From: Escherichia coli
GTDB lineage: Bacteria; Pseudomonadota; Gammaproteobacteria; Enterobacterales; Enterobacteriaceae
Assembly (NCBI RefSeq): GCF_046105845.1
Contig: NZ_CP151004.1
Direction: 5' to 3' (one strand)
DNA: 64,000 bases
Below, piece by piece: positions 27,230 to 47,752 of this stretch. Below the pieces are notes generated by a model. It saw only the letters and a list, made by a program, of their open reading frames with translations, made no database searches and was not told the origin of the DNA. The position numbers and the translations under genes were made by a program. Numbering within the stretch: the stretch's first letter is position 1; the number at the start of each line of letters is the position of its first letter.

Positions 27230-27253
27230 GCCCTCTGATATGAGGGCTTTATT
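27230..27253 (+). terminator. Weak hairpin upstream of int
   Basis: GCCCTC-tgatat-GAGGGC followed by TTTATT. Confidence 0.35.
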
Positions 27254-29290: not shown

Positions 29291-29506
29291 TCAAAGTGCC
29301 ACTACATGAACAGCCGCGGGGCCTTTAGGTCCGTTCTCAATACCAAATTCGACTTCCTGATTCTCAGTTAACGTTTTGAAATCGTTGCTCTGAATAACTG
29401 AGAAATGGACAAACACATCTTTGCTACCATCTTTCGGCGTGATGAAACCAAAACCTTTTTCAGGGTTAAACCATTTCACTAAACCAGTCATTTTGTTAGA
29501 CATCAT
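29291..29506 (-). CDS. Cold-shock protein (CspA family)
   Basis: [23 protein letters not shown]...VFVHFS, RNP motifs. Confidence 0.85.
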
Positions 29507-29866
29507 TATTACCTTTTGAAGAAGTTAGCCCTTGGGCAGAATGGTCCGAAAAAAAATATCAGAGAGAAAAACCAACAAGGAGATCTCAAGAGGTACAAAT
29601 AATAAAATTATAACAATGACTGCTTCAGATAATTTTGTAACAAACCAGAACACCATTAACGCATGATTAACCAACCATAGCAAGGATTACTTTTGTAAAG
29701 AAAAACACACGAATGAAACAATAGCTTTATTTATTAATAAAACGTGTCATTCTGTCTAATGACCTTTTATCTTACCCTTAAGATTTCAAGGATTTTGACT
29801 CATGGAAGAGTCCTTTTTATTTAAATTTCACATTCAGCGCTAAAAATAATCCGATTTAATATTAAT

Positions 29867-30894
<1,028 letters not shown>

Positions 30895-31215
30895 GGATAT
30901 TTATCAGGATTTATCGGCTTCAAATCCCCGGATATGTTAAATCTTACCTCACCAGTGATGGGCACTGGCGGGAGGAGGATGTCAATCTGATAAACACAGA
31001 GGTGACTATGGATTACACAAATCTACCAAAACAAACTTTTGCTGATTTAATCGCACTCAGGCAAGCAGTCGTAGCTCTAATCAACTTGTTGCCGGAGAAG
31101 GAAAAGGAATTAGTTAAAGCGCTTCTTAACAGAACTGCCGCCGATTTTTCATCATATCCACTGACAGATGACCTTGCGGACCTTCCTGAATTAATTGCAG
31201 CGTCCGCCATTAAGC

Positions 31216-31767
31216 TTACTGAAGAGATTTACCCTCCTCAAAAATCTTCACAAAATTCCTGCGAGTAACTTCAATGCAATAATCGTAAAACGCCGCAAAC
31301 TGCTCATCGCGGCGTTTTTTTTCATCTTCAGAAGGGATCAGCACCGACAATTTTTTATTCAGATCAGCGACGCTGCCCTCCAGTTTTTCAATGGGCGATT
31401 CAATATCATCTTTTTCTGACCGCAATGCCGTCGGTGGCGTCTTCAGAGAACCAGTAATTCTTCCCGGTAGCTTTCCTTTGTAGGTTATCCACACATTCTG
31501 CGCCTCTAAAATTATGGGGCGCTTTTCCGGCGACTGCTCATCCCCTACACATAACCCGGCAGCAACATCCAGGAATACCTGTCTGATTCTCATTCTGGCT
31601 GCTGCCTCATAAAACTCCAGCGCGGCACCTTCAACACGGTCCAGCGAGATGTCCAGGTCAAAAATTTCACCGTCAAAGCGTTTTTTGTCCCGTAAGGCTA
31701 CAGTTACCGCCACTTTATTCTCAAAATTGCGGACTCCTTTCACAACCAGTTCATAGTCTTGTGTCAT
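31216..31767 (-). CDS. YdfR-like protein (DUF1327-type), between holin and lysozyme
   Basis: Position matches Qin essQ-ydfR-rrrQ; family assignment from memory only. Confidence 0.5.
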   Translation of the reverse strand: MTQDYELVVKGVRNFENKVAVTVALRDKKRFDGEIFDLDISLDRVEGAALEFYEAAARMRIRQVFLDVAAGLCVGDEQSPEKRPIILEAQNVWITYKGKLPGRITGSLKTPPTALRSEKDDIESPIEKLEGSVADLNKKLSVLIPSEDEKKRRDEQFAAFYDYCIEVTRRNFVKIFEEGKSLQ

Positions 31768-31771
31768 TGGA

Positions 31772-31987
31772 TTACTCTCTTCTCGCAACCTTACGCCTGT
31801 CTTCTTTAATCTTGAAATAAAGGTTTGTCAGATACGTCAGCAGGCCAAAAACCAGACTACCCAGCACACCGATTGCAGCCCACTGTGACGGAGTTACTTT
31901 ATCGAGTAACTGCAATGCCCAGAAACCAGCATTACCAGCCGATGTGCCATAGGCGATACCTGTTGTTAACTTATCCATTGATTTCAT
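31772..31987 (-). CDS. Holin (EssD/EssQ-like)
   Basis: [66 protein letters not shown]. Confidence 0.85.
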
Positions 31988-32205
31988 ATCCTCACCCCGA
32001 TGTACACAGATGGTGCAATATGTTTGAAAAGATCGGAGTCTATGGGTTAGTTTTTATAGCAAACGTTGTTCTCAACGGCGCTAAAAAACAGACACATTAA
32101 AAATGTGGGTAATTATTTTAAAAGAAAATCATATATTAAATAATAATACGAGATATGTTTTCATATTTAGTGTACTGTATACGGCCATTTATACAGGAAA
32201 AGCCT

Positions 32206-32376
32206 ATGTCAGAACGTAAAGACTCAAAATCACGCCGTAATTATCTCGTTAAATGTTCCTGCCCAAACTGCACCCAAGAGTCAGAACACAGTTTTTCAAG
32301 AGTACAAAAAGGTGCCCTTTTGATCTGCCCTCATTGCAACAAAGTATTCCAGACAAATCTTAAAGCTGTAGCTTGA
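32206..32376 (+). CDS. Small zinc-ribbon protein (hypothetical)
   Basis: ATG at 32206 after an AGGAAAAG RBS; CSCPNCTQ...CPHCNK, two CxxC pairs. Confidence 0.5.
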   Translation: MSERKDSKSRRNYLVKCSCPNCTQESEHSFSRVQKGALLICPHCNKVFQTNLKAVA

Positions 32377-32739
32377 TTGATTTTATTCGTAACAAGTATT
32401 TTTTATATTTTAATAACATATTTAAAGCAGATAATAAAAAACCCGCCTGAGCGGGTTTAATATTGTGGTACTTTTTGTGGGAGTCATCCACTTACGCACT
32501 TTGTTTTGCTATGCCAGCAGTTAGCTTCTGCTGTAAAACTATTCATGCAGCAAACCTGCACTTCACCACAATGGTTAGCATACTTTTCCTGATTAAGTTA
32601 TTGCCAAATATGCTGGCCATTGTTTCATGTATTGGACCTCCTTACTATTTATTAAAGAGATCCAATATTCACCACTCTGTCTGTATCTCCACTCAGGCAT
32701 CAGCCTTCTTCGTTATCGTATACAGACAAACTATGAATT

Positions 32740-32955
32740 TTAATCAGTAATTATGACATTTGCTGCTGCAGGACCTTTAGCACCACTCTCTACAGAGAAG
32801 GTAACCTTTTGACCTTCAAATAAGGTTCGAAAATTATCATTCTGAATCGCAGAAAAATGCACAAACACATCTTTACTACCATCAACAGGAGAAATAAAGC
32901 CAAAACCTTTATCAGCGTTAAACCATTTTACTAAACCAGTCATTTTATTTGACAT
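32740..32955 (-). CDS. Cold-shock protein (CspA/B/G family)
   Basis: [23 protein letters not shown]...VFVHFSAI. Confidence 0.85.
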
Positions 32956-33255
32956 TCTACATTCCTTAACTTGAGCCTTTCGGCATAAATGGCTTGTATA
33001 ACAGAAACGACTTCGTACTTAATTGGAGAGACTCAAAGAAGGAATAAGTGAATAACACCTGAAATGAGAACTGCTTTAGTAAACTACTTCGTATATCGTC
33101 TGTTCTTCAAACCGACGCAATCATTAACGCATAGTTGAACATATGAAGCAATGTTTATTTTAGACATCCAGCCATCTTCAACCCCATCAAAAAACTATAG
33201 CTTTCTTCAGGAACGTGTGTATAGTGCGCCCAGTTATCAGTATTAAGGAATTTTT

Positions 33256-33468
33256 TTGTCCCGTAAAATGACAGGAATTGTCAAAACCTTTGACGGCAAA
33301 AGCGGCAAGGGTCTTATCACCCCATCCGATGGTCGTATCGATGTCCAGCTTCATGTTTCAGCGCTCAATCTCCGCGATGCAGAAGAAATTACCACCGGAT
33401 TACGCGTGGAATTTTGCCGGATAAATGGTCTGCGTGGCCCTTCAGCTGCCAATGTTTACCTTTCATGA
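33256..33468 (+). CDS. Cold-shock-like protein (CspF/CspH type)
   Basis: [37 protein letters not shown]...[16 protein letters not shown]. Confidence 0.8.
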
Positions 33469-33883
33469 GCTATATTAAAGCTTTAATTTCAGGCCCCATC
33501 GAATCAAACATGGAGAGTTTTCATGAATAACCCCGTCTGTCTTGATGACTGGTTGATTGGCTTTAAAAGCTTATGCTGTACTTTGACCGTAATAGCTCTG
33601 CTAATAATGTAATATGCAGACTCATTGTATCTAGGGACATAGTACTGGAAGAAAACATTTTAAACATCAGGCAAAGTCACCCGATAAATAATAAGTAAAC
33701 AAACATGAATCCCGGAATGAGATTCAACATCTCTATTACCCTATTTAAAGCACAAAAACCCGCTCATCAGCGGGTTTTCTACTTTTTCTTAACGTCGGGT
33801 ATATAAAGCCCATCGTTGAAAAAATTTTATCCATATTTTTTGAAAAATGCAAGCATTACGTCGCCATCTTCGGCGAAAATCAT

Positions 33884-34636
33884 TTATCTCGTCACTTTTC
33901 TTAATTGCACCTCAGCATATGCTTCTTCCTGCCAGCACTTTGTAACCAGTTTATCAATGACATCTGCATATCCTTTGTACCACTGATAATCAGTCAGGTC
34001 TGGTACCAGCTTCTGGACATGACACCGCGCCAGTGTCGTTGGTAAACGACTAAACCGGTTTCCATTGCAACGCCCACAAATCTTATAAACAGGCGCGCCA
34101 TGAAGCCGGGTCCTTTTTTCATCCAGGACAATACCTTTACCCTTACACCCTCTGCACGCTGTGCTGACTTCTCCCTTACCATGACAATGCTGACATAGTT
34201 CCTTCACCCACTCTTCCTTGATAACAGACTCCCCGCTTCTGGAGTATTTCACCACTTCGCGCAATACATTATGAAATCCAGTACCAGCACAAGGCTCACA
34301 GCGAGCCTTACTTGCCGCAGACCTGGAATAATCAGCAAAGGCAAAACTCACAAGGTAAGGGATGATCTGTAACCGGATTTCTTCACTCAATTTGTTCAAT
34401 GTCGGGTTATCCAGTGCCATCGCGTAATTGAGCAGACCTTCAATCGCAAACTGAGGATCCTGAACGCCAGCTTTTGCCAGGAATAAGGCAAACCCAAGCG
34501 GTGCTTTCGACTGCACCATCCCCTGCGCAGCCATCACATCCGTAATCGTTAAACCACCTGAGCCTGTCGCCGGTGCGGCATCACTCAATTTTGGAGATTT
34601 TGGGGAGTAATATTTTGGTAAGGCTTCAAGGTTCAT
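33884..34636 (-). CDS. Late-gene antiterminator Q (QuuD/QuuQ type)
   Basis: From MNLEALPKYY...; Cys-rich zinc-binding region CEPCAGTGF...CQHCHGKGE...CRGCKGKG...CGRCNGN. Confidence 0.8.
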   Translation of the reverse strand: MNLEALPKYYSPKSPKLSDAAPATGSGGLTITDVMAAQGMVQSKAPLGFALFLAKAGVQDPQFAIEGLLNYAMALDNPTLNKLSEEIRLQIIPYLVSFAFADYSRSAASKARCEPCAGTGFHNVLREVVKYSRSGESVIKEEWVKELCQHCHGKGEVSTACRGCKGKGIVLDEKRTRLHGAPVYKICGRCNGNRFSRLPTTLARCHVQKLVPDLTDYQWYKGYADVIDKLVTKCWQEEAYAEVQLRKVTR

Positions 34637-34649
34637 GCTCGTTCTCCAC

Positions 34650-35645
34650 TTACGCCAGTACGCCAATTGCCAGCGCACGATCGATAAAACGAAATATCAG
34701 CTCCAGTTGGGAGCCATACTTCTCTTCAAATGTCACGGTATCCGCATGCAGCTCGTCGTGATGCTTTCTGCACAAAGGCAACACAAAGAGATCATGCGCT
34801 TTTGTACCCATTCCACCCTGACCGTGGCCTATCAGGTGGTGGGGATCATCAGCTGGCTTTCCACAACATGCGCACGGCTGCGTCTTAACCCAGCGCGTGT
34901 ACTTTTCATTAACCCAGCGGCGACGTTTGGGGCGTAACATAAAAGACTCCGGCGACTCCGGATCCACTTTCAGCGCCAGCACCTTTTTCGCTTTATCCTG
35001 GATGATGCTGGTGGCAGGAACCGAAGGCACAAGGTCACTTTCCCGGGTGACAGATGGCACAACAGGCTTCGGTAATCTCAGTGCCTTACGGGCTGCACTT
35101 TCCGGTAAGGCATCCGCCAAATCATTACGAACCAGCCACCAGCACAGTTCCGGCATTGTCACAACGTGACTGTCATCAAAACCGAGATCCCGACGCACGA
35201 CAGACAACACCCAGCGGGCACAGTTATCCGTTGCCATTGATTCCAGCCGTTCCGTGAACTGGTCACGCAGCTGGTTATCGCAGTGCCAGCACAGACGAAT
35301 TGCTCCCGGAGCGTGCCGCATTGTGGTCATGTTCTCGCTGTGCCAGTCGGAATGAGGCCACTGACAGCCCTTTTCACGAAGTAACCAGCTTTCAAGACAT
35401 TCCACGCCACCAGCACGACGGATCACTGCCTCATTGCGGAACACGGCCCGAACGGCAGGATCATCCGCCAGCGGTTGTGATGCCGCCGGAACGGCACCAC
35501 TGGCGAAAGATGAATAACGTTCCGGCTCAGGCTCCAGCAGGACACGCCCCTGCATAAACAGGGGCATCAGCTCTGAACCTGGCCTGAACAATACAATCCC
35601 CATACGCGGGGCAATTTCAGGGGTCAGTAGTGCTCTCACGGTCAC
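34650..35645 (-). CDS. YdfU-like protein (DUF968)
   Basis: 331 aa; C-terminal ...CACCGKPADDPHHLIGHGQGGMGTKAHDLFVLPLCRKHHDELH; Qin-like position upstream of Q. Confidence 0.75.
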   Translation of the reverse strand: MTVRALLTPEIAPRMGIVLFRPGSELMPLFMQGRVLLEPEPERYSSFASGAVPAASQPLADDPAVRAVFRNEAVIRRAGGVECLESWLLREKGCQWPHSDWHSENMTTMRHAPGAIRLCWHCDNQLRDQFTERLESMATDNCARWVLSVVRRDLGFDDSHVVTMPELCWWLVRNDLADALPESAARKALRLPKPVVPSVTRESDLVPSVPATSIIQDKAKKVLALKVDPESPESFMLRPKRRRWVNEKYTRWVKTQPCACCGKPADDPHHLIGHGQGGMGTKAHDLFVLPLCRKHHDELHADTVTFEEKYGSQLELIFRFIDRALAIGVLA

Positions 35646-35646
35646 C

Positions 35647-36444
35647 TCAATGAACGGTATCGAGCAGCTTTAACAGCTCAGGGAATCGGGATTCGAAGAA
35701 ATGCGGCTGCGTCTCGCGCGGATTTGCAGGACTGGTGATGTTCTTGCCGAACATGCAGCCTTTCGCCGTCAGCGACCAGAATTTTTTGATGTTGTTAATC
35801 GCGGTACGGCTGTATCGTTCGCGTTGTTCAACGATCCCCAGCTTCACCATCTGGTGATATGCCTGATTAGCCGTCAGGCGGATACCATACTGCCTCAGCA
35901 GTGCACTCAGAGACAGCGTGGGGCGACTTGAGCCATCGTGTGCATCAGCAGGAGCATCAATGGCATAGCGCGGTGCCAGATTCGGTAAGCCAACAGCCTC
36001 CTGGAGTTTCTGGCAGGCACCAAGCACTGAAGAGTTAGACAGGTTTAATTCCCGGCGCATAAAGTCCAGCAGAATCACACCAGCCTGCATCTTGTCAGCA
36101 GCCTGTCCGGATAATTTTTCCGGTGCGCTGGTTACCATGTCGAAAGTACGGATCACCTTCAGATGGAATGACGGGCTGATCCACATTGCATAGGCATACA
36201 CCAGTTCTTTGCAGACATACGTCCCCTGGTTATTTCCGCCACGAATAACGTTAACTGGCTCTATATTGACCGAGTTGCAAATCTGCAACTCGCTTATTAA
36301 ACGCTCAGTTTGCTCATTGCGGAGCCAGAATGCGGGCTTATGCTTATCCAGAGAACCAGCAGCCCTGTGCAGATCGTTCAGGCTGTAACGCCCATAAGCA
36401 TCACGACGAACTTCAATACCATCAATAACCATCAGATTATTCAT
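35647..36444 (-). CDS. KilA-N domain protein (antirepressor-like)
   Basis: N-terminal VIDGIEVRRDAYGRYSLNDLHRAAG...KPAFWLRNEQTERLISEL. Confidence 0.75.
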   Translation of the reverse strand: MNNLMVIDGIEVRRDAYGRYSLNDLHRAAGSLDKHKPAFWLRNEQTERLISELQICNSVNIEPVNVIRGGNNQGTYVCKELVYAYAMWISPSFHLKVIRTFDMVTSAPEKLSGQAADKMQAGVILLDFMRRELNLSNSSVLGACQKLQEAVGLPNLAPRYAIDAPADAHDGSSRPTLSLSALLRQYGIRLTANQAYHQMVKLGIVEQRERYSRTAINNIKKFWSLTAKGCMFGKNITSPANPRETQPHFFESRFPELLKLLDTVH

Positions 36445-36463
36445 ACTTCGTTTCTCCTCTTAA

Positions 36464-36853
36464 TCAGGCGGCTGCACCCGCCGTTTTCTCGTACTTACTG
36501 ATAGTGATCTCGACCTTCCCTTCCGGGATAACCGGTCCCCACTCCACCAGCATTCTTTTCACCTGACTGTCGTCTTCCCACACACCCGCGTGGGTCAGGG
36601 CGTCAAACAGCGCCTTGTTATAGTTGTCCAGATCGCGGATCCGGTTATCCGGAGGAAACAACACGATCTCCACTGAAGCAGGTGCCGACGTTGGTTTTGG
36701 CAGACGACGTAACTGCTCAAATATTGCTGCACACGCCGCGCTCTGGAATTTGCGCCCCGCCGCGCTTATCAGGCTCTTACCAGCAAACGCCCCTTTGTTG
36801 GGGTGTCGCCAGTACGTGTTCACGCTGGGCGGGAAAGGCAGGATCAGCTTCAT
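36464..36853 (-). CDS. rusA: Holliday junction resolvase RusA
   Basis: MKLILPFPPSVNTYWRH...DLDNYNKALFDALTHAGVWEDDSQV. Confidence 0.85.
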   Translation of the reverse strand: MKLILPFPPSVNTYWRHPNKGAFAGKSLISAAGRKFQSAACAAIFEQLRRLPKPTSAPASVEIVLFPPDNRIRDLDNYNKALFDALTHAGVWEDDSQVKRMLVEWGPVIPEGKVEITISKYEKTAGAAA

Positions 36854-37176
36854 ACTTTCAGGCCCCTCTCATGTAACCAGTGGGCTGCACGCAGTCTGGC
36901 GTTTTCCTCACCGGCAAGCAGTGCGCGGATAATCCCGGCTGCCTCGCTGTCGTCGTCCTTCACTGTGGTATGAAGCGTGATACCCCGGGCCACGCCACGC
37001 TTTATCGTGATGACGCCTTTTTTCTCCAGTGCGCGAAGATGCTCCACCGCTGCATTCACCGAACGGTATCCCAGCATGGCTGCCACCTCCTGATTGGTTG
37101 GCGGGAAACCACGTTCTTTCTGATAAGAAATCAGCATATCCAGCACCTGCTGCTGGCATTGAGTTAACGTCGTCAT
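36850..37176 (-). CDS. LexA-N-terminal-like winged-helix DNA-binding protein
   Basis: LTQCQQQVLDMLISYQKERGFPPTNQEVAAMLGYRSVNAAVEHLRALEKKGVITI parallels the LexA DNA-binding domain; no S24 peptidase domain. Confidence 0.6.
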   Translation of the reverse strand: MTTLTQCQQQVLDMLISYQKERGFPPTNQEVAAMLGYRSVNAAVEHLRALEKKGVITIKRGVARGITLHTTVKDDDSEAAGIIRALLAGEENARLRAAHWLHERGLKV

Positions 37177-37664
37177 TAAGCCCACACGTAATTCCCTGAC
37201 AGATACCACTCATCACCCGATACAGCGCGCTTGCTGCTTTTCCGTAAGCACCGCTCACGGCGCGCCAGAAAATTGTTTCGTTCTGACTGGGAGTGGCTTT
37301 CACGGAATGCCGCCATCCACACGGTTGCAGCACGACGGTATAAGCCCCTGGACTCCAGTTCTTCAGCCTGGCGGGTCAGGCACAAAATTACCCGGGGATC
37401 GTTAGTGCCGACATAGAAATTGCGCACAGGTCTGGTTTCACGAACTGGTTGTGGTTCCGGCTCCTGCGCTCTCTCAGTCAGGCGCGGGAAATGTCTGCGT
37501 GTATTTCCTTCACAACGGTGAGCCACACGCCCACTCTGACGTAACTTGCTTGCTGACTGCAGAACGCGCTGCCGTGAGTAACCTGCAAAAGCATCTGCAA
37601 TGTCTCCGGAAGTACACCCCGGATGGGCTTCAATGAATTTCTGAACTTCATTCAAAAGACTCAT
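37176..37664 (-). CDS. PerC/ANR-like small regulator (hypothetical)
   Basis: C-terminal ELESRGLYRRAATVWMAAF resembles the PerC-family signature. Confidence 0.5.
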   Translation of the reverse strand: MSLLNEVQKFIEAHPGCTSGDIADAFAGYSRQRVLQSASKLRQSGRVAHRCEGNTRRHFPRLTERAQEPEPQPVRETRPVRNFYVGTNDPRVILCLTRQAEELESRGLYRRAATVWMAAFRESHSQSERNNFLARRERCLRKSSKRAVSGDEWYLSGNYVWA

Positions 37665-37666
37665 GA

Positions 37667-38485
37667 TTACCCCCTGAATCCTGCCGGGATCTGGCTGTAG
37701 TCCACGTTGTCGTAACTGGCTTTGAAGTACGGGTCCTCGCGTCTGGCTGCAGATACCGCAGGAACTTCCCAGGATTCTTCGAAATGACGATCCGGACCAA
37801 AGAACGTGACAGCCTGTTTCACAAATTGTGTGCCGCTGTTACCCATCGCAGATACCCAGCCCGCGTAGCGTTTCACACCTTCCAGCATGGTTTCGGGTTT
37901 TACCCCCTCATTCAAACGGGCTTTCCAGGCTTTGAAGGCTGCAGATTTTGAATTGCCACCAGCACGTTTGGGGTATGCCAGCCATGCCTGCTCAAACTCC
38001 GGAGAGTATTCCGGTCGGTTTGAACGAACTCGCACAGACTCATCAGCAGATGCACCAACAGCTATTGGTTCATTGACTGGTTCTTTGACTGGTTCAAAAG
38101 AGTGACTGGTTCTGGGTGAATCTCCTGCACCACCCCCTGGTGCAACTCCTGCACTACCTGGTGAATTTGCTGCACCAGATAGTGAATTATTTGCACTACC
38201 CCCTAGTGAATCTCCTGCACCATCAAGATGAAGGAGATAGATATTACTTGAGTTACCTTTTTCACCTTTCCGGGTGACTTTTTTTACCAGCCCGGAATCA
38301 CAAAGGGCCGCAATATGATTCATCACAGAACGTTTGCTAATCTCGCACTGGTCAGCAATATGCTGGTAGCTGGGCCAGCACTCACCCTGATCGCTGGCAT
38401 TATCAGCCAGCTTGATCAGAACCAGTTTTCGCAATGGATTACCCACTCGAATTTTCATCGCTTTAACCATCAGCTCCATACTCAT
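37667..38485 (-). CDS. Replication initiator (lambda O-like) with N-terminal winged HTH and DnaT-like C-terminal tail
   Basis: Start at 38485 after a GGAGG RBS; low-complexity middle encoded by iterons; C-terminus ...DYSQIPAGFRG matches host DnaT ...[10 protein letters not shown]. Confidence 0.7.
   Translation of the reverse strand: MSMELMVKAMKIRVGNPLRKLVLIKLADNASDQGECWPSYQHIADQCEISKRSVMNHIAALCDSGLVKKVTRKGEKGNSSNIYLLHLDGAGDSLGGSANNSLSGAANSPGSAGVAPGGGAGDSPRTSHSFEPVKEPVNEPIAVGASADESVRVRSNRPEYSPEFEQAWLAYPKRAGGNSKSAAFKAWKARLNEGVKPETMLEGVKRYAGWVSAMGNSGTQFVKQAVTFFGPDRHFEESWEVPAVSAARREDPYFKASYDNVDYSQIPAGFRG
38040..38230. repeat. Iteron-like direct repeats inside the initiator gene (putative replication origin)
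   Basis: Repeated TTGACTGGTTC units and ~21-bp units ending in ...CCTGCAC or TTTGCAC (e.g. CCCTGGTGCAACTCCTGCAC, TACCTGGTGAATTTGCTGCAC, CAGATAGTGAATTATTTGCAC, CCCTAGTGAATCTCCTGCAC). Confidence 0.6.
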
Positions 38486-38718
38486 GCTGCACCTCCGAGA
38501 TGCTTCATGTTTTTTCCGGAGCAAAAGGCTATAAGCGGCATACTGATGCGGTAATTACGGCCCAGCGGTTCACAAATCACCTTCTGACATTCACGGTCAA
38601 CCAGGCTAACACGTAGAACATGCCCTGCAGGCGTGGTGTACCACTGCCCAACTGTAGGAATTGATGTTTTTTTACGCTGAAGCAAACGGCAAATATTGAG
38701 GATCAACGGATTAAGCAT
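38482..38718 (-). CDS. Hypothetical protein
   Basis: 78-aa ORF translationally coupled to the initiator. Confidence 0.4.
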   Translation of the reverse strand: MLNPLILNICRLLQRKKTSIPTVGQWYTTPAGHVLRVSLVDRECQKVICEPLGRNYRISMPLIAFCSGKNMKHLGGAA

Positions 38719-39547
38719 GACGATGCCCTCCGCTGATATTCAGGAGACGGTGAATATGAAAATTAGCCTTATCCGCCAGACGAATACGTTCAGCCTGCAA
38801 GTTAAGAAGGGTTTCTACCAAAACCTGATGCGCCTGCGGATCCGAAAGAGTTACCTTGCGCAGAGCACGTAGTGCAGTTGTTACATAACTGAGTTTATGT
38901 AAGTCTTCATCATTCAGACGAGTGAGGGCTGGGACAGTAGCCATGATGGCAGCCTCCGATAACAGTGAATTACCTTCACCACCGGAAACGCCAATTTCGC
39001 TGGTGGTGAACTGAACGGGGTTGGCGTAACCGGCGTTATCGGAAACCGGCGCACCTTTCGGTGCCCCCGTCCAGCCCACCATAATTTGGGTGTGCACAGA
39101 CACAGACGATAAAAAAGACGCTGGCGCGTCATATATCGCCGATAACATTTCCAGGACGCCAATCCCGTCACCCGCTTTATAAGGTGCCTGAACAGTGTAA
39201 CGTCCCGGAATGGCAGAATCAATGTGCTGGTGGTCCTTCACACTCAACAAAATCACGCCTGAATTTCCACAAAGGACTAAAGCACTCATGCGGGTAGTCT
39301 TTGCGAAGATAGATAACGCGCTGTGTTTCTGGTTCCCAACGAATAACATGGACATAAAGCCCTCTTCCGTCACGAAACCAGCGGTTAAGTTCCCGCACAA
39401 CTCGCCCCCCACAGTCAGGTAAAGTTCTCTGTGGTTACTTACAGCCAGGTGATTTGGTAATCTGCATTCATGCCGTAACAACAGGTGTTCAGCGACACTG
39501 ACCACCAGCTGTTGCGACAAACGGTTATTTGCCGTTAAACTGTTCAT
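38711..39547 (-). CDS. Hypothetical phage early protein
   Basis: 278-aa ORF in the cro-proximal early-right operon. Confidence 0.5.
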   Translation of the reverse strand: MNSLTANNRLSQQLVVSVAEHLLLRHECRLPNHLAVSNHRELYLTVGGELCGNLTAGFVTEEGFMSMLFVGNQKHSALSIFAKTTRMSALVLCGNSGVILLSVKDHQHIDSAIPGRYTVQAPYKAGDGIGVLEMLSAIYDAPASFLSSVSVHTQIMVGWTGAPKGAPVSDNAGYANPVQFTTSEIGVSGGEGNSLLSEAAIMATVPALTRLNDEDLHKLSYVTTALRALRKVTLSDPQAHQVLVETLLNLQAERIRLADKANFHIHRLLNISGGHRHA

Positions 39548-40107
39548 GCGTTAGTTTCTCCACAGACACAAAACGCCACGACGCCCGGAGCTGCACACTC
39601 GCGGGCGTCACTCTTTTCTGGAGCGCAAAAGATTTTGTAGACCAGTGCTGCATGCTCTTGGAGCTTCGAAATTGACAGATACAACTCATCATTAATTGCT
39701 GTCTGCTCGTGTGGCTCCACGACCCCATCTTCGATTGCCGAACGAATCTGCTTTGAGTAATTCCCGATCTGTTCGATGACTTCCAGCAGGCGCTGGTTTA
39801 TATCGGCGTTCTCTACTTCCTCAATTTCAGGAAGCGATACGAACACCCCACCAGCAGACTGTGCGACAGCATCCGCAATGTAGTGAGTGTCAGCCGCGCG
39901 CTGTAAAACCATTGCCCATCCCAGCGGGAAAATCTGATCGCCATCGGCACGAAGGCGGTTAAATAATGCGTTCTCTGTTACATCCAGCCAGTCAGCTGCT
40001 TCAGCGTAACCACCCGGCAACGCTGCGATAGTTTTTCTGACAGCTTTCACGTACCACTCAGGCTGTTTTTCTACTTTCCAGTGATACTTACCCACGGTTA
40101 GCCTCAT
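39544..40107 (-). CDS. Hypothetical early regulator (YdaT/CII-like position)
   Basis: 187-aa ORF immediately downstream of cro; family not confirmed. Confidence 0.45.
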   Translation of the reverse strand: MRLTVGKYHWKVEKQPEWYVKAVRKTIAALPGGYAEAADWLDVTENALFNRLRADGDQIFPLGWAMVLQRAADTHYIADAVAQSAGGVFVSLPEIEEVENADINQRLLEVIEQIGNYSKQIRSAIEDGVVEPHEQTAINDELYLSISKLQEHAALVYKIFCAPEKSDARECAAPGVVAFCVCGETNA

Positions 40108-40138
40108 CGTTCTGTGGTTAAAAATTGAAGGTGTTCTG

Positions 40139-40339
40139 TTAATCTTTCGGATAGATATCCGGTCTTAAGTCAGATTTCGTAATTGCACCTGACGTGCATT
40201 GCTCAAGTTTTTTCGCCAGCACAAAACTGGCTTTTTTATAACCATTGAAAACCAGCCGTAAGTAGCCAGGTGTTGAGCCAACTTTTCCGGCCAACTCGCC
40301 CTGCTGTTCTTTGGTTAAAGAGTCCCAATACGCTTTCAT
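40139..40339 (-). CDS. Cro-like HTH repressor (YdaS-type)
   Basis: From MKAYWDSLTKEQQGELAGKVGSTPGYLRLVFNGYKKASFVLAKKLEQ with GGAGG RBS; divergent from cI. Confidence 0.6.
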   Translation of the reverse strand: MKAYWDSLTKEQQGELAGKVGSTPGYLRLVFNGYKKASFVLAKKLEQCTSGAITKSDLRPDIYPKD

Positions 40340-40429
40340 ACAATATGTACCTCCAGTATACATATTACATGATTGAAATGAACCTTCAAGATACTTGTAC
40401 CTTATCGGTACAAAGGTTTTAATTTCGTT
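40340..40429. promoter_or_regulatory. cro-cI intergenic switch with palindromic operator-like sites
   Basis: Imperfect palindromes ATATGTAC-ctccag-TATACATAT and CTTGTACC-ttatc-GGTACAAAG sharing a TGTAC core. Confidence 0.5.
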
Positions 40430-41104
40430 ATGAAAACAATCCATGACATCCGGCGGTCTAACGCCAGAAAACTGAGAGATGGTGTTGGCGGAAATTCATC
40501 CTTTGCCACCATGATTGATCGCGAGCCAACCCAAACCAGCAGGTTTATGGGGGATGGCGCTACTAAAAATATCGGTGACAGCATGGCACGGCACATCGAA
40601 AAATGTTTCGACCTGCCTGTCGGATGGCTTGATCAAGAACACCAGACAACGAACATCACAAAAAAACCTGATGTTTCAATCACTAACAAACAAATAACGT
40701 TAGTCCCTGTCATATCATGGGTACAGGCCGGAGCATGGAAAGAAGTTGGCTATTCTGAGGTTGATTTGAGCACAGCAGAAACGTATCCCTGCCCTGTACC
40801 CTGTGGCGAAATGACTTATATCTTGCGGGTGATTGGTGATTCAATGATTGATGAGTACCGCCCTGGAGACATGATTTTTGTTGATCCCGAAGTCCCTGCC
40901 TGCCACGGTGACGACGTTATTGCATTGATGCACGATACAGGCGAAACCACCTTCAAGCGATTGATAGAAGATGGAACACAGCGTTATCTCAAAGCATTAA
41001 ACCCAAACTGGCCTGAGCCTTACATTAAGATTAACGGTAATTGCTCTATAATTGGTACAGTGATTTTCTCGGGAAAACCAAGAAGATACACAATAAAGGC
41101 CTAA
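40430..41104 (+). CDS. CI-type repressor (HTH plus S24 LexA-like peptidase domain)
   Basis: C-terminal ...VISWVQAGAWKEV...LRVIGDSMIDEYRPGDMIFVDPE...TFKRLIEDGTQRYLKALNPNWPEPY... closely parallels the lambda CI C-domain with Ser and Lys catalytic pair. Confidence 0.85.
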   Translation: MKTIHDIRRSNARKLRDGVGGNSSFATMIDREPTQTSRFMGDGATKNIGDSMARHIEKCFDLPVGWLDQEHQTTNITKKPDVSITNKQITLVPVISWVQAGAWKEVGYSEVDLSTAETYPCPVPCGEMTYILRVIGDSMIDEYRPGDMIFVDPEVPACHGDDVIALMHDTGETTFKRLIEDGTQRYLKALNPNWPEPYIKINGNCSIIGTVIFSGKPRRYTIKA

Positions 41105-41116
41105 TCAATATTTATG

Positions 41117-41140
41117 AACCTGCTTCGGCAGGTTTTTTTA
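41117..41140 (+). terminator. Rho-independent terminator after cI
   Basis: AACCTGC-ttcg-GCAGGTT followed by TTTTTT. Confidence 0.65.
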
Positions 41141-41589
41141 TACTTGACAATGTACCTATGAGATACATAATGTATCCAAAAGAAACATGAGGCAGGCAAG
41201 ATTCAAACAAAATTTGGTTGTAACACGGCGTATGGCACATGCGTCGTTAGCGGTCTGGGGACGTTAAAGGGGACAATCCACTCCTTGCTAGGGCAAACAA
41301 ACCAGGTAGCCGGAATGTGCAAGTCAATGATGATGCTGATAAGACGCCTAACCAGCGTGGCGATCCGGTTTGACGCCTGGGAAGAGACCAGGGTGCAACG
41401 ATGAGGGCATTTATGGAGCCGCGACAAAGTGTGGTGCCGTAACTGGCTAAGTGCTCTCAGCGTTGTGGTCATCCGCGAAATGGCGCGGCGGTAAGTATGG
41501 CTGGGTTACTCTTTCCCCGTTGAGGACACCGGATTGTCAGGTTGACCATACGCCTGAGTGACAACCCCACCACAACAGCCACTGCTTTG

Positions 41590-41635
41590 GCGGTACCAGT
41601 TTGTACACTTGCTTCCGGCTGGTACCGCTCTTTTT
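41590..41635 (+). terminator. Rho-independent terminator-like hairpin in the cI / early-left intergenic region
   Basis: GCGGTACCAG (41590-41599), 19-nt loop, CTGGTACCGC (41619-41628), then TCTTTTT. Confidence 0.5.
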
Positions 41636-41724
41636 ACAAAACAGAGAAGAGCATCACCGGACGACGGGCTCATAACCCAATCCATCCGGGCGGCTGCCAC
41701 CGCAGGTGTTCTTCTCTGTTTTGT
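41636..41724. repeat. Perfect 15-bp inverted repeat with 59-bp spacer
   Basis: ACAAAACAGAGAAGA (41636-41650) and TCTTCTCTGTTTTGT (41710-41724). Confidence 0.6.
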
Positions 41725-41772
41725 GGAGAAACCAACCGACCTTGCAGGGTCGATATGATGAGGAGCAGCAAA

Positions 41773-42135
41773 ATGGCTAGCGAACGCAGTACTGATGTGC
41801 AGGCATTTATCGGGGAGCTGGACGGCGGCGTATTTGAAACCAAAATCGGCGCAGTTCTCAGTGAAGTCGCTTCCGGTGTGATGAACACGAAAACCAAAGG
41901 TAAGGTCTCACTCAACCTGGAAATCGAACCATTTGATGAGAACCGTGTGAAAATCAAACACAAACTCTCATATGTTCGCCCGACTAACCGCGGGAAAATT
42001 TCCGAAGAAGACACCACCGAAACGCCGATGTATGTCAATCGCGGTGGTCGCCTGACTATTCTGCAGGAAGACCAGGGACAATTACTGACTCTTGCCGGTG
42101 AACCTGACGGAAAACTACGCGCAGCAGGTCATTAA
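41773..42135 (+). CDS. YfdP-like early protein (hypothetical)
   Basis: Start at 41773 after an AGGAG RBS, 120 aa; upstream part of ORF track 41542..42135 spans the terminator hairpin. Confidence 0.55.
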   Translation: MASERSTDVQAFIGELDGGVFETKIGAVLSEVASGVMNTKTKGKVSLNLEIEPFDENRVKIKHKLSYVRPTNRGKISEEDTTETPMYVNRGGRLTILQEDQGQLLTLAGEPDGKLRAAGH

Positions 42136-42200
42136 TATCGTTCTTAATTAACTGATTATTTATCTCATCACTGAATATCTTTATATAGTGAGGACTTATT

Positions 42201-43025
42201 ATGTCTCAGAACTTAGACGCAACCGCAATTAATCAAATCCATGCCCTTATTTCTGCTCAGGGTGTTAATGAAATTATCAGTAAGATTGGTGCCGATGCTG
42301 TGGTATTGCCTGAGAATTTCCGCATTCATGATCTGGAAAAATTTAATTTAAATCGCTTCCGTTTCCGTGGTGCGCTTTCCACTGCCAGCATCGATGACTT
42401 TACCCGTTATTCTAAAGATCTTGCAGATGAAGGCACCCGCTGCTTTATCGATGCTGATAATATGCGTGCCGTCAGTGTACTTAACCTGGGTACTATTGAT
42501 GAACCAGGTCACGCAGATAACACCGCCACTCTCAAACTGAAAAAGACAGCACCGTTCTCTGCCCTGTTGTCTGTTAACGGCGAGCGTAACTCCCAGAAGT
42601 CACTGGCAGAATGGATTGAAGACTGGGCCGACTACCTTGTGGGCTTTGATGCTAATGGTGACGCTATTCAGGCAACAAAAGCGGCTGCGGCAGTCCGTAA
42701 AATCACGATTGAAGCAAACCAGACCGCTGATTTTGAAGATAATGACTTCAGCGGCAAACGCTCCCTGATGGAATCTGTCGAAGCGAAGACCAAAGACATT
42801 ATGCCAGTGGCATTTGAAATTAAATGCGTTCCGTTTGAAGGTCTGAAAGAACGTCCGTTTAAATTACGCCTCAGCATTATCACTGGCGATCGTCCTGTAC
42901 TGGTTCTGCGCATTATTCAGCTGGAAGCGGTGCAGGAAGATATGGCTAACGAATTTCGTGATCTGCTTGTTGAGAAATTCAAAGACAGCAAAGTAGAAAC
43001 CTTTATTGGTACTTTCACCGCCTGA
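42201..43025 (+). CDS. YfdQ-like protein (DUF2303-type)
   Basis: 274-aa ORF; family assignment by recollection of CPS-53 synteny yfdP-Q-R-S-T. Confidence 0.6.
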
Positions 43026-43152
43026 TTTCATTACTGCAAATGCCCCTGCGGGGGCATTTATGGAAACGTAATTAACTCAATAATCACCGGATGGTGAGGG
43101 CTTCCTTTTACCCAAACTCAGCGCGGTGCAGCGCATATACGTGGAGAACAAA

Positions 43153-43689
43153 ATGTCATTTATTAAAACTTTTTCCGGGAAGCATTTTTATTATGACAAG
43201 ATAAATAAAGACGACATCGTGATTAACGATATCGCGGTTTCCCTTTCAAATATCTGCCGCTTTGCCGGTCATCTTTCTCACTTCTACAGTGTCGCCCAAC
43301 ATGCGGTGCTTTGCAGCCAGCTGGTGCCGCAGGAATTTGCTTTTGAAGCGTTAATGCATGATGCAACAGAAGCGTATTGCCAGGATATTCCCGCTCCACT
43401 GAAACGCCTTCTTCCTGACTATAAACGGATGGAAGAAAAAATTGACGCCGTAATCCGTGAGAAATACGGGTTACCCCCAGTTATGAGTACGCCCGTGAAA
43501 TATGCCGATCTTATCATGCTGGCAACCGAACGCCGCGATCTCGGGCTTGATGATGGCTCTTTCTGGCCTGTACTGGAAGGCATCCCGGCAACAGAGATGT
43601 TCAACGTGATTCCACTGGCACCTAGCCATGCCTACGGGATGTTTATGGAACGTTTTAACGAGTTATCGGAGTTACGCAAATGCGCATGA
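43153..43689 (+). CDS. HD-domain phosphohydrolase (YfdR-like)
   Basis: ATG at 43153 after a GGAGA RBS; HD-type metal-binding motifs ...SVAQHAVLCSQ...ALMHDATEAY. Confidence 0.75.
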   Translation: MSFIKTFSGKHFYYDKINKDDIVINDIAVSLSNICRFAGHLSHFYSVAQHAVLCSQLVPQEFAFEALMHDATEAYCQDIPAPLKRLLPDYKRMEEKIDAVIREKYGLPPVMSTPVKYADLIMLATERRDLGLDDGSFWPVLEGIPATEMFNVIPLAPSHAYGMFMERFNELSELRKCA

Positions 43690-44042
43690 ATGTTTTCGAA
43701 ATGGAAGGGTTTCTTCGCGGTAAATGTGTACCGCGAGATCTGAAAGTGAACGAAACAAATGCTGAGTACCTGGTACGTAAATTCGACGCGCTTGAAGCTA
43801 AATGTGCGGCACTGGAAAACAAAATAATACCAGTGTCAGCTGAACTGCCACCAGCAAATGAAAGTGTTCTGTTATTTGATGCTAACGGAGAAGGCTGGCT
43901 GATTGGCTGGCGTTCTCTCTGGTACACCTGGGGACAAAAAGAAACCGGAGAATGGCAGTGGACATTTCAGGTCGGGGACCTTGAAAACTTCAATATCACT
44001 CACTGGGCAGTAATGCCAAAAGCGCCGGAGGCTGGAGCATAA
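43680..44042 (+). CDS. YfdS-like hypothetical protein
   Basis: 120-aa ORF overlapping the previous stop; synteny. Confidence 0.55.
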   Translation: MRMNVFEMEGFLRGKCVPRDLKVNETNAEYLVRKFDALEAKCAALENKIIPVSAELPPANESVLLFDANGEGWLIGWRSLWYTWGQKETGEWQWTFQVGDLENFNITHWAVMPKAPEAGA

Positions 44043-44662
44043 TGACCACATTTACCAATAAAGAACTGATTAAAGAAATCAAAGAACGAATCAGCAGCCT
44101 AGAGGTTCGAGACGATATTGAGCGCCGTGCTTATGAAATTGCTCTGGCATCGCTAGAAGAGGAGCCGGTGGCATGGCTGCATTCAGAAAATGGCTTAGGT
44201 ATTCCGGCAATAACGAGGAGTAAAAACATTGCTGACAGTTGGTTATCAAAGGGCTGGTATGTTCAGCCGCTATATATAGCCAAGCCAGTGCCGGTGGTGC
44301 CAGATGCTCGTCCGTCTTTAAATAATGGCATAGTCGGCTTTGATGAAGGCTGGAACGCCTGCCGCGCCGCCATGCTTAATGGTGCCGAACCTGTAAGCCA
44401 GACTTACAAGTTGAACGAGCTGTCGGGCAACTCTCCGGTAACTCCGGATGGTTGGATAAGCTGTAGTGAGCGAATGCCGAACGATAAACAGTATGTTTGG
44501 TGTTGGGGTAAGTCTTACGGCTGGACTGAGTACGATACCTTCGAAGGGTATTACGATTGTTCGAGAAACAAATGGTGGGCAGTTACTGACAATGGGGAAG
44601 AACCGGCATCGAAAGTAACCCACTGGATGCCGCTACCGGAGCCGCCGCAGGAGGTGAAGTAA
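44042..44662 (+). CDS. DUF551-domain protein (YfdT-like)
   Basis: C-terminal ...DGWISCSERMP......THWMPLPEPP typical of DUF551. Confidence 0.7.
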   Translation: MTTFTNKELIKEIKERISSLEVRDDIERRAYEIALASLEEEPVAWLHSENGLGIPAITRSKNIADSWLSKGWYVQPLYIAKPVPVVPDARPSLNNGIVGFDEGWNACRAAMLNGAEPVSQTYKLNELSGNSPVTPDGWISCSERMPNDKQYVWCWGKSYGWTEYDTFEGYYDCSRNKWWAVTDNGEEPASKVTHWMPLPEPPQEVK

Positions 44663-44856
44663 TGAACAACTTAATGACAACTAAACAAGTCGCCGATTTC
44701 TGTGGTGTTTCAGTATCGACAGTTCTTCGCTGGAACAGCGTAAACAGGAGAACTGGCCAGAAATACAGGCCTGACTTTCCAGATCCTGATATTAAATCCT
44801 GCCCAAATAAATGGGCATCACACAAGATTTACAGATTTGCGGGAGTGATTGATTAA
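44662..44856 (+). CDS. AlpA/Xis-like excisionase HTH protein
   Basis: MNNLMTTKQVADFCGVSVSTVLRWNS..., MerR-type HTH, int-proximal. Confidence 0.6.
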   Translation: MNNLMTTKQVADFCGVSVSTVLRWNSVNRRTGQKYRPDFPDPDIKSCPNKWASHKIYRFAGVID

Positions 44857-45138
44857 TATGTATTAGCTTAGATGTGAGCTGACACATCTATGATTAGATG
44901 CCAAACCAAATCTGAGCGTCCACTCTTTAACAAGAGCGGACGTTACCAATGACCATATGACATGAATCGATAAGATCAAAACATTATCGCCAAGAAATGT
45001 CATACCATTGATACAAATAAAATTGATTACCCCCTTACTCTTGTTGAAAAGTTAGTCGTAGAGTACCTATCGCAATGTAATCAGCTTTAATCATCTGAAA
45101 ATTACTCCTTAAAAATTAGCTTTTATATACTGAACAAA

Positions 45139-45858
45139 TTAAATCTCTGTTTCTTTTCCTGTTCGGCTCAACCAATACTCCATTGTTTGAGTATGAATCT
45201 TTTCAGCGTATATTTTATCAATTAATTTATCTCGTTTTTCTTTAATGACTTTACGCAGTGAATCATATAACATAAAAAAACGTTCATCATCTTCCTCATT
45301 ATTACCATAATTTATTTGATTGAGTTCTGAAAAAATATGATAGCACCTTTTTTTCTTGGTCCCCGGCAATATTAAAACCAAGCCACATTGATCATATTCA
45401 AATTCACCTTTATGGGCAGCAAAGTTATGTCTAACATTCATAATAGAATCATGTAAATCTCTGTATTTTTCTGGCACATGCTTTCTCTGCAATGTGAATC
45501 GACGCCCTTTCGCCTCTGTAAAACACTTACCGTAAGTAACAACTTTTGATATAAATAAAGACTTTAATATTAGATTCTTTTCTAAATCAGGATAAATAAA
45601 GTGTTGTTCTCTATTAATGTTATTACAAATGTTTTTTATTATATTCTCCCAACCAATAACATTCCGAAGATCTTTATCCAGCAACTGTAAGGCCACATAT
45701 TGTTCTACAAAGCGGCCTTTTAAAGGTATTCGTGGTAATATTACACCTTTCTGCTTATAAACTCTTTCTATCGTATTATCTGGATATTGGATCTTCCTTA
45801 TTTCTATTCCGTCTTCTTCTGATACCCTTACTAATGGTTCATTTTTTAACTTTGACAT
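45139..45858 (-). CDS. AT-rich hypothetical protein between xis and int (candidate accessory or defence gene)
   Basis: 239-aa ORF in a very AT-rich stretch with GAGGG RBS and ATG at 45856-45858; no motif I recognise. Confidence 0.6.
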   Translation of the reverse strand: MSKLKNEPLVRVSEEDGIEIRKIQYPDNTIERVYKQKGVILPRIPLKGRFVEQYVALQLLDKDLRNVIGWENIIKNICNNINREQHFIYPDLEKNLILKSLFISKVVTYGKCFTEAKGRRFTLQRKHVPEKYRDLHDSIMNVRHNFAAHKGEFEYDQCGLVLILPGTKKKRCYHIFSELNQINYGNNEEDDERFFMLYDSLRKVIKEKRDKLIDKIYAEKIHTQTMEYWLSRTGKETEI

Positions 45859-46143
45859 GTTAACCCTCTTAAATAAAAAACTAACTTTATCCAGATAGTG
45901 TCCGTTAAGAAGTTTTCGTTACAACTAAGTTTCTAGGTAAATCATGAATCAACCTATAGTATCAAAAACATTTGGTGGTAAACATCTGCATTTATCAAAT
46001 AGCAGGAGCGATTTAGGGGCATAGGGATAGTGATGATATCTATACCCGTGCCCTCTTATGTCAACACAATGGCGTAAACTTAACGCTCACATCTCGCTCA
46101 AAGTGTGCTAGGAGATTTGGTTATGTTCAGGTGATACAAACCG

Positions 46144-47367
46144 TCAGTTTGAATCAGAGATAGTACAATTAACAATCGATTCAACCCTCTTCCACCATGC
46201 CAGGTAAGCTTTACGCTGTTCTTCTAGATAATCGCTCTTATCATAAACTTGCCATACCCCTGGCAGCTTATGACCAAGCATAATTTCTGCGATATGAGGC
46301 GCAGTAAGATCAGAAAAATTTGTTCGTGCTGTCCGTCTCAAGTCATGAAGAGACCAATGAGGGAATTGATATCCTAAACGCCGCCACGCGTACTGCATTA
46401 AATTGTAAGGCAGCGACTGTAATGATGTCCTACCGACTGGCTCCCTGCTTCCTTCCTTAGTAAAAAGCATATCGGAACCGTTGTTCATAGAGATAACGTA
46501 TTTTATAAGCTCTTCAACCGGTTCAATAATGGGCCGCTTTAGCGGTTCGCCTGTTATGTCCCCTGTCTTATGTCGTTCAGGTGGTACAGTCCATACCTTA
46601 TTTATGAAATCAAAATCACCCACCCTAGCAGTAATTAGCTCCGAACTACGGCAACCAAAATGCAGTAATAGTTTAATGAAGGCCCGGTATTTGGGAACCA
46701 TTCTAGAGCCATCGATCGCAGCATAAAGAATTTTAATTTCATCGTGTGTCAGAAACCGTTTCTTCTGACCTTTACGGATATCCATATCTTTACCCGTGAT
46801 ATCCGACAGCGGGCGAGTTTCAATAAGCTTTCTCTTATACGCCCAGACATGGGCCTGCTTTGCGTTAATTAGCAATCGGTCTGCTATTGCTGGAGTCTTA
46901 GTGCTAAGAGGCTCCAGGACTTCTAACCAATCATGCAATGTAGCTGCATCGTGAGGGATATTCCCGATTTTAGAGAACAGGTGCAGCTCAAACGAGCGGA
47001 GTATCTGTTCAGAACCCTTTTTATTTTTTACACAATATGCTTCATACCAGGCACGGATCACAGACTCTACCGTCATGGCTTCAGTAGCTTTTCGTTTTTC
47101 AGCCTGCTTGACCAATCGTGGATTACGGTTTGACTCGAGTTCACCACGGAGACGGATAACTTCTTCTCTGGCCTCTTTTAATCCAGTTGCCGGGTAAGTT
47201 CCGATATCAAGACGCTCACCTTTCCCTGCCCATTGATAACGATATTGAAACACTACGCGACCTTTCGGTGATACTCTGACAGACAGACCATCACGATCGG
47301 ATTTAACCAAAACCTTATCACGTTCCTTTCCAACGACTGAACGCAACCACGCATCAGACAGCGCCAT
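46144..47367 (-). CDS. int: Tyrosine integrase (P4-like, arm-binding N-domain)
   Basis: 407 aa; N-terminal ...LSVRVSPKGRVVFQYRYQWAGKGERLDIGTYPATGLKEAREE; C-terminal ...HDLRRTARTNF...IMLGHKLPGVWQVYDKSDY. Confidence 0.9.
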   Translation of the reverse strand: MALSDAWLRSVVGKERDKVLVKSDRDGLSVRVSPKGRVVFQYRYQWAGKGERLDIGTYPATGLKEAREEVIRLRGELESNRNPRLVKQAEKRKATEAMTVESVIRAWYEAYCVKNKKGSEQILRSFELHLFSKIGNIPHDAATLHDWLEVLEPLSTKTPAIADRLLINAKQAHVWAYKRKLIETRPLSDITGKDMDIRKGQKKRFLTHDEIKILYAAIDGSRMVPKYRAFIKLLLHFGCRSSELITARVGDFDFINKVWTVPPERHKTGDITGEPLKRPIIEPVEELIKYVISMNNGSDMLFTKEGSREPVGRTSLQSLPYNLMQYAWRRLGYQFPHWSLHDLRRTARTNFSDLTAPHIAEIMLGHKLPGVWQVYDKSDYLEEQRKAYLAWWKRVESIVNCTISDSN

Positions 47368-47376
47368 TACTCACCT

Positions 47377-47433
47377 TGTACAAATCGCAAAACACCTCTG
47401 CTGCTTTGTACATTATGTACAAGCATATGTACA
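47377..47433. repeat. Cluster of four TGTACA hexamers upstream of int (possible arm or operator sites)
   Basis: TGTACA at 47377, 47407, 47416 and 47428. Confidence 0.4.
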
Positions 47434-47587
47434 GATTTTTGATGAAAGCAACCTGATCGATTTAAAGTTACATGAAAGAATTTTCAATTAAAGAAGCCAC
47501 ATAACTATATGTATTTAAATGAGTTATATAACCAGACCTCAATTAACTGAAAGGATTTTGAAAGAGTAAAAGAGCTTTAATTTGGGA

Positions 47588-47662
47588 TTAATTATTGGGG
47601 TGAGAAATAATGGCAAAAGTGCGGCGCTTCGCCACCTCTTGCAAATAAGGAGACAACGTCAT
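47588..47662 (-). pseudogene. prfC: prfC (peptide chain release factor 3) 5' fragment, truncated at the prophage junction
   Basis: Minus-strand ATG at 47660-47662; [22 protein letters not shown] then NN-stop; the host reading ...HPDAGKTT is lost at ~47597. Confidence 0.8.
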
Positions 47663-47752
47663 AATTCTTTCTTCTTGAGTAAGCGGCATCGCGCCGCGCT
47701 TGTTGAAAACGAAAAATTGCGGCTATTTTACCCATCAACGGGGGGGAGGCAA

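Follow-up and report, generated by a model that had tools for sequence, protein, structure and literature searches.

The window, a 64-kb stretch of Escherichia coli DNA, carries on its host side the minus-strand chromosomal genes prfC, yjjG, rimI, and holD, with prfC present as a 5′ stub that runs into phage DNA next to a phage integrase gene (int). The int/att module of this phage DNA is 99.3% identical at the nucleotide level to that of the free phage 2H10 (LR595862) and 94.5–95.5% identical to the corresponding regions of phage cdtI, phage Ayreon, and 27 Stx1a/Stx2c prophage records (94.5% for the int region of cdtI, AB285204), and positions 28381 to 47597 are colinear with the lambdoid prophage of strain ST38. 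Judged by these similarities, a lambdoid prophage of the 2H10/cdtI/Stx1a–Stx2c type meets the host here at its int-proximal junction. The features on which the description rests are the following:

28394 to 47597: the part of the lambdoid prophage present in the window (early, immunity, and lysis regions), delimited by colinearity with ST38
40343 to 40413: cI–cro operator-like palindromes with TGTAC half-sites, seen in the sequence; outside the att site and given for comparison
44662 to 44856, plus strand: xis (excisionase), convergent with int (PHROG 1553, E = 6e-36)
46144 to 47367, minus strand: int, encoding a 407-aa tyrosine integrase of the IntSXT subgroup (Pfam domains, PHROG 1)
47368 to 47597, minus strand: P′ arm, the phage DNA from the core to the int start (99.7% identical to the 2H10 attP)
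47588 to 47662, minus strand: prfC 5′ stub, codons 1–22 plus a phage-encoded Asn-Asn-stop (translation; tblastn with RF3)
47598 to 47611, minus strand: att core ATTATTTCTCACCC, 14 bp, the sole stretch identical in attB, both junctions, and attP
47725 to 47752, minus strand: candidate native prfC promoter TTGCCT-16-TAAAAT (consensus scan only, in sequence identical to that of K-12)

The int gene reads inward from the att site, and its product is 100% identical in amino acid sequence to the 2H10 integrase and 38.5% identical, over 99% of its length, to that of R997, an SXT/R391 integrative and conjugative element (ICE; PMC5561048). It contains the Pfam domains Arm-DNA-bind_3 (PF13356, residues 3–90, E = 5e-16), Phage_int_M (PF22022), and Phage_integrase (PF00589). 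Smyshlyaev et al. (PMC8138268) place the cdtI integrase and IntSXT in a single cluster that targets prfC, within the IntSXT subgroup, whose mark is an N-terminal DUF4102 arm-binding domain. The window enzyme shares with this SXT cluster the Arm-DNA-bind_3 and catalytic domains, insertion at the 5′ end of prfC, and relatedness to the cdtI and R997 integrases; the grouping itself is that of PMC8138268, to which we add pairwise identities only. Since int points inward from the att site and converges with xis, it lies outside the leftward early operon. Between xis and int, the minus strand contains a 239-aa ORF (PHROG 8440, 45139–45858), in a slot where lambdoid phages often carry cargo genes; no stx or cdt gene was seen in the window.

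On the host side of the junction, upstream of the core, the window does not differ from the K-12 attB region over the stretch that leads from the end of yjjG across the start of prfC. The stub starts at 47662 and its stop codon occupies 47588–47590. Its translation and the K-12 alignment agree with an initial sequence-only reading of this DNA, according to which host DNA is intact up to codon 22 of prfC and then gives way to Asn-Asn-stop, with the element inserted within the prfC coding sequence; the junction indeed lies inside codons 18–22. That reading set the switch to phage DNA precisely after codon 22; the change from host to phage DNA stands, but its exact placement does not, as it lies somewhere within the 14-bp identity. 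When RF3 was searched with tblastn across the window, residues 1–23 matched at the stub only and the rest gave no significant match, the remainder of prfC being absent from these 64 kb. The stub is annotated as an incomplete pseudogene in the RefSeq records of relatives. We also considered whether the segment at 47588–47662 could be phage-borne mimicry, which its identity to, and contiguity with, the host yjjG–prfC region excludes: it is host DNA, and the mimic lies at the other end of the prophage. The insertion had also been considered unusual for its position in the 5′ end of a gene, a view at odds with the presence of the int–yjjG junction in 698 of 5,426 complete E. coli genomes (~13%).

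The core was defined by a four-way alignment of the K-12 attB, the window junction, the far junction of ST38, and the 2H10 attP. Comparison with a prophage-free relative, here K-12, had been proposed as the means of defining the att core, and it yielded the 14 bp ATTATTTCTCACCC, which span prfC codons 18–21 and two bases of codon 22. Stx phage records, LC727891 among them, mark this 14-bp stretch as the insertion duplication. Because this is the single identity shared by all four att sequences, the alignment places the crossover within the IISHP codons, where the GTPase G1/P-loop motif begins. A direct-repeat search detected no second copy of the core in the window.

The window also contains a second prophage. 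Positions 1–28393 belong to a P2-like prophage nested inside the lambdoid one (junction at 28381–28393), where it separates the lysis/cold-shock cargo region from the missing late genes. Its junction core, ATGGGTAATTTGT, resembles the usual site by rcdA in E2348/69, ATGGGTTTTTTGT, and the insertion looks like a case of secondary-site integration. No complete E. coli genome covers positions 22000–32000 of the window, which include this P2-in-lambdoid junction, by at least 80%, and the junction itself recurs in none of them. As the left side of the lambdoid prophage is interrupted in this way, its far junction falls outside the window, by colinearity with ST38 roughly 30–35 kb past the left edge, and what happens there has to be extrapolated from relatives.

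In ST38, phage DNA at the far junction contributes an ATG and 21 codons leading in frame into the core. The resulting hybrid RF3 is 528 aa long, is annotated in RefSeq as an intact prfC, and is identical to RF3 past the surrogate start, the change being confined to the Thr2–Glu9 segment, where LSPYLQ is replaced by SLLAA, one residue shorter. The junction between phage arm and prfC is present in 699 of the 5,426 complete E. coli genomes and is annotated as prfC in every one of the matches listed. In free phage 2H10, which carries an intact attP, the surrogate start belongs to a 24-codon mini-ORF ending in NN-stop. The sequence-only reading had expected prfC to be disrupted unless the far junction rebuilt its 5′ end. 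It was right to make disruption depend on the far junction but not to regard it as the likely outcome, given the full-length in-frame hybrid of ST38 and the hundreds of genomes with the same phage-arm/prfC junction; the concern is probably unfounded in the window strain as well, to the extent that its relatives are a guide.

The surrogate start also bears the mark of coding sequence. Across the nine codons for EVAKRRTFA, phage and host differ at 8 of 27 bases with no amino acid change, an outcome that 300,000 random draws of eight substitutions failed to produce even once. Such silent-only divergence indicates that the surrogate segment evolved as RF3-coding sequence, although it could predate capture, having accumulated in a functional prfC of another host, and does not imply current selection. 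There are hints that the surrogate descends from the prfC of another host. Its N-terminus (ST38 segment 26096–26160) has the length of the Pseudomonas RF3 N-terminus (stub at 2741–2815) and a 16-letter sequence stretch in common with it, unlike that of E. coli.

An intact hybrid ORF is not necessarily an expressed one, and the most serious alternative is that prfC is functionally inactivated in the window strain, either because the far junction is damaged or absent there or because the hybrid is not expressed, its promoter and ribosome-binding site having been removed. Ogura et al. (PMC2323221), who described this very junction for an O103 Stx1 phage in prfC, with a changed RF3 N-terminus, noted that the phage takes away the gene's original ribosome-binding site and its promoter and left expression of the hybrid open; they also reported prfC to be non-essential, so that the high prevalence of the hybrid is no proof of its function. 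Bobay et al. (PMC3603311) list prfC among phage-disrupted genes. In our material, the window lacks the remainder of prfC, its prophage has been rearranged by the nested P2-like insertion, and a consensus scan in the prfC direction found no sigma-70 site scoring at least 9/12, and thus no strong promoter consensus, upstream of the surrogate ATG, where by eye there are weak candidates such as TTTTCT-17-CATAAT. Against inactivation, ST38 has the hybrid ORF undamaged and at full length and the listed junctions are all annotated as prfC, the surrogate codons depart from those of the host silently only, and the homologous SXT element is reported to supply both a promoter and an N-terminus (PMC8409611, citing Hochhut & Waldor 1999). 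The P2-like insertion, for its part, is ~19 kb from the int-side junction and, by colinearity with ST38, far from the other one. On balance we regard inactivation as unlikely, while transcription and function of the hybrid are inferences. A dinI-like gene, divergent from the surrogate prfC start and separated from its ATG by 220 bp, has two LexA-box-like palindromes (CTGT-N8-ACAG) in front of it (ST38 far-arm segment 25880–25950; 2H10 segment 3170–3230). The region upstream of the hybrid prfC may be SOS-regulated.

The second conspicuous trait of the junction is a cluster of TGTACA repeats between the core and int. Exact TGTACA hexamers start at 47377, 47407, 47416, and 47428, just as first noticed, and although the 12 copies found in the 64-kb window amount to chance expectation overall, the 230-bp spacer between int and the core contains four against 0.087 expected, a number reached in none of 20,000 dinucleotide shuffles. 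Extended to 10 bp, they read as four candidate arm-type sites:

47377 to 47386, plus strand: TGTACAAATC, directly upstream of the int ribosome-binding site
47407 to 47416, plus strand: TGTACATTAT, inverted with respect to the sites at 47412–47421 and 47424–47433
47412 to 47421, minus strand: TGTACATAAT, its hexamer invariant in 2H10, cdtI, Ayreon, and Stx1a phages
47424 to 47433, minus strand: TGTACATATG, in a 12-bp-spaced tandem pair with the site at 47412–47421

Next to the first of these lies the ribosome-binding site of int (TGTACAAGGTGAGTAATG, minus strand). Reading the attP of 2H10, cdtI, Ayreon, a reconstructed Stx1a phage, and the ST38/window composite reveals the same 4 + 4 arrangement throughout, with TGTACA at −183, −114, −86, and −74 from the core start on the P arm and at +178, +190, +199, and +229 on the P′ arm. 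The hexamers are invariant across these sequences while the neighboring spacer bases vary. Similarity between Ayreon and the other phages starts ~28 bp outside the outermost P-arm site, which fits a functional attP of roughly 450 bp. Taken over 24 sites, the repeats give the asymmetric candidate consensus TGTACATAWT, a motif that we did not find in the literature searched, including a full-text search for TGTACA together with attP.

The motif is retained well beyond the close relatives of the prophage, in elements of five other genera and in R997, whose integrases are 38–65% identical to that of the window. Behind a prfC stub, integrases of Xenorhabdus (65% identical), Serratia (61%), Pseudomonas (52%), and Shewanella (50%) are preceded by 3–4 TGTACA-type sites in an arm that is otherwise unalignable, with TGTACA 9–13 nt upstream of the int start in Xenorhabdus, Serratia, and Shewanella and TGTAC ~19 nt upstream in Pseudomonas. 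A Morganella contig (Logan SRR16377031, 5756–6000) encodes a 50% identical integrase after trkA and keeps a 12-bp-spaced TGTACA pair. The idea that all ~50% identical homologs target prfC is excluded by this trkA-associated relative. Arm specificity thus appears to be more conserved than core specificity in this integrase family. An IMG/VR scan with the integrase family alignment returned, among the 80 matches listed, E. coli copies in all cases, 97–100% identical and most of them ending at int.

The repeats had been read in two ways, as integrase arm sites or as repressor-controlled operators for int, and their distribution discriminates between the two. They occur on both attP arms and follow int, not immunity, across relatives: Stx1a phages keep all eight sites and lack the window-type cI–cro module, which we found in 2H10, Ayreon, cdtI, 12 Stx2c phages, SfV, and SfIV but in no Stx1a phage, the first 12 kb of one of these containing no CI or Cro homolog. 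The presence of repeats on both arms, their co-inheritance with int, and the arm-binding domain of the integrase make arm-type sites the best reading, and the TGTACA repeats are most likely arm-type integrase sites with the consensus TGTACATAWT, the binding by Int being predicted from these associations.

The competing view, in which the cluster consists of CI (or Cro) operators that place int under immunity control, has some appeal. The TGTAC core does recur, as first observed, in the cI–cro palindromes of the window (ATATGTA..TACATAT at 40343–40365 and TTGTACC-N5-GGTACAA at 40395–40413), which share the half-site TTGTAC with the repeats; one inverted pair, TTGTACA-TTA-TGTACAA, lies at 47406–47422; and the immunity and int modules occur together in 2H10, Ayreon, cdtI, and Stx2c phages. 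Yet the half-sites of this inverted pair are spaced differently by 2 bp (TTGTAC-N5-GTACAA, versus TTGTAC-N7-GTACAA in cI–cro), the remaining sites form no palindromes but direct repeats in tandem, at 12-bp intervals, and the P arm, remote from int, has the same sites. The two modules are also separable, since 12 Stx1a phages have all the sites without the window-type cI–cro module and, conversely, SfV and SfIV have the immunity module and are absent among the records matching the int/att module. The motif is kept, moreover, in the Pseudomonas, Shewanella, Xenorhabdus, and Serratia elements and in ICE R997, with its different regulation. Operators are for these reasons a very improbable explanation. 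Still slightly less credible as the ligand of the repeats, in place of Int, is the excisionase or an architectural protein of the host (IHF or Fis): a xis gene is present at 44662–44856 and excisionases bind repeated att-arm sites in lambda-type systems, but the repeats are similarly numerous on both arms where lambda Xis sites occupy one only, the motif is unlike the IHF consensus, and it is conserved alongside the Arm-DNA-bind_3 domain across elements, including that of Morganella with another target.

Taken together, we consider it highly probable that this is the int-proximal junction of a prophage inserted by an SXT-cluster integrase at a 14-bp core in prfC, that the far end rebuilds RF3, and that the TGTACA repeats are arm sites of the integrase. 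In the mechanism that we propose, an SXT-cluster tyrosine integrase would integrate the lambdoid prophage into the 14-bp core within prfC codons 18–22. At the end contained in the window, the host keeps the prfC promoter and the first 22 codons, which run into phage DNA and stop after two Asn codons, followed by the P′ arm and then by int on the same strand as the stub. At the far end, the P arm would bring a ribosome-binding region, an ATG, and 21 codons, joining the core in frame to encode a 528-aa RF3, such that insertion would swap the 5′ end of the gene instead of destroying prfC. The TGTACATAWT sites, with their 12-bp-spaced pairs, would be bound by the N-terminal arm-binding domain of Int, four on each attP arm as in lambda-type intasomes.

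This arrangement has potential consequences for transcription. In the free phage, int lies downstream of the surrogate prfC start region; integration puts it downstream of the promoter and the stub of host prfC. The candidate native promoter is then upstream of both the stub and int, and no terminator-like site was predicted between these two. Two TGTACATAWT sites fall within ~40 bp upstream of the surrogate ATG and another borders the ribosome-binding site of int. A lysogen may transcribe int from the promoter of host prfC, with the hybrid prfC driven by signals on the phage side. A bolder extension, which we advance only as a speculative and rather improbable idea, is that attP acts as a promoter-swap device in which Int occupancy couples the expression of RF3 and Int to the integration state. 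Separate from this, and offered in the same spirit, is the idea of a single TGTACATAWT code extending from lambdoid phages to SXT/R391 ICEs, together with target switching between paralogous GTPase genes, Gifsy-1 being the nearest outgroup.

The prfC junction is in itself an ordinary and already described prophage junction, integration with a replaced N-terminus having been published for Stx1 phages and for SXT. It nevertheless means that a hybrid RF3 with a phage-encoded N-terminus occurs in ~13% of complete E. coli genomes, and that genomes with a prfC prophage should not be scored as prfC-disrupted; in view of the hybrid ORF, the listing of prfC as disrupted by Bobay et al. (PMC3603311) is too strong. 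The candidate consensus TGTACATAWT, seemingly common to SXT/R391 resistance elements, offers a concrete target for dissecting integration and excision across the cluster.

Among known systems, the closest are the other prfC lambdoid phages, namely 2H10, cdtI, Ayreon, and the Stx1a/Stx2c prophages of O103/CC119 STEC, which have the same core, NN-stop stub, and surrogate N-terminus. The window prophage does not differ from them in kind, apart from hosting the nested P2-like prophage and carrying other cargo. SXT/R391 elements also integrate at the 5′ end of prfC (PMC2791158, PMC4344509), and R997 (NZ_KY433363.1) resembles the window phage type in having a prfC-like mini-ORF with a core-like sequence, ATTATTTCCCACCC, and TGTACA(A) pairs 12–13 bp apart on both sides of the att region, although the record was circularized from an integrated copy and little weight should be given to the precise bases at its origin. 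The arm motif therefore seems, from these sequences, to be common to lambdoid phages and SXT/R391 ICEs. The differences are nonetheless considerable: SXT/R391 elements are conjugative ICEs and not phages, the R997 integrase is only 38.5% identical, its gene lies beyond xis and reads toward att whereas that of the window reads away from it, and int/xis expression in SXT/R391 depends on SetCD (PMC4344509). The dusA-specific genomic islands and prophages (Farrugia et al. 2015; IMEVchUSA3) are described as behaving analogously, with another target gene (PMC8409611).

The next closest phage integrase is that of Gifsy-1 of Salmonella (46.6% identity), which differs in its target, lepA, and in its arm repeats, of the GTGTCCA type and not TGTACA. 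The terminal att segment of Gifsy-1 (NC_010392.1, 46800–48491) reads SIIAHID-N-stop, and we take SIIAHID to be the codons of the LepA G1 motif, paralogous in position to FAIISHP of RF3. The match suggests that the target was switched from one translational GTPase gene to a paralogous one. Phage 21 and e14, which integrate into icd, and tRNA-targeting elements likewise carry a copy of the segment that they displace and leave the target intact, but they replace the 3′ end of the gene, for which no promoter is needed; the prfC prophage, by contrast, must supply the 5′ end, a start codon, and transcription signals.
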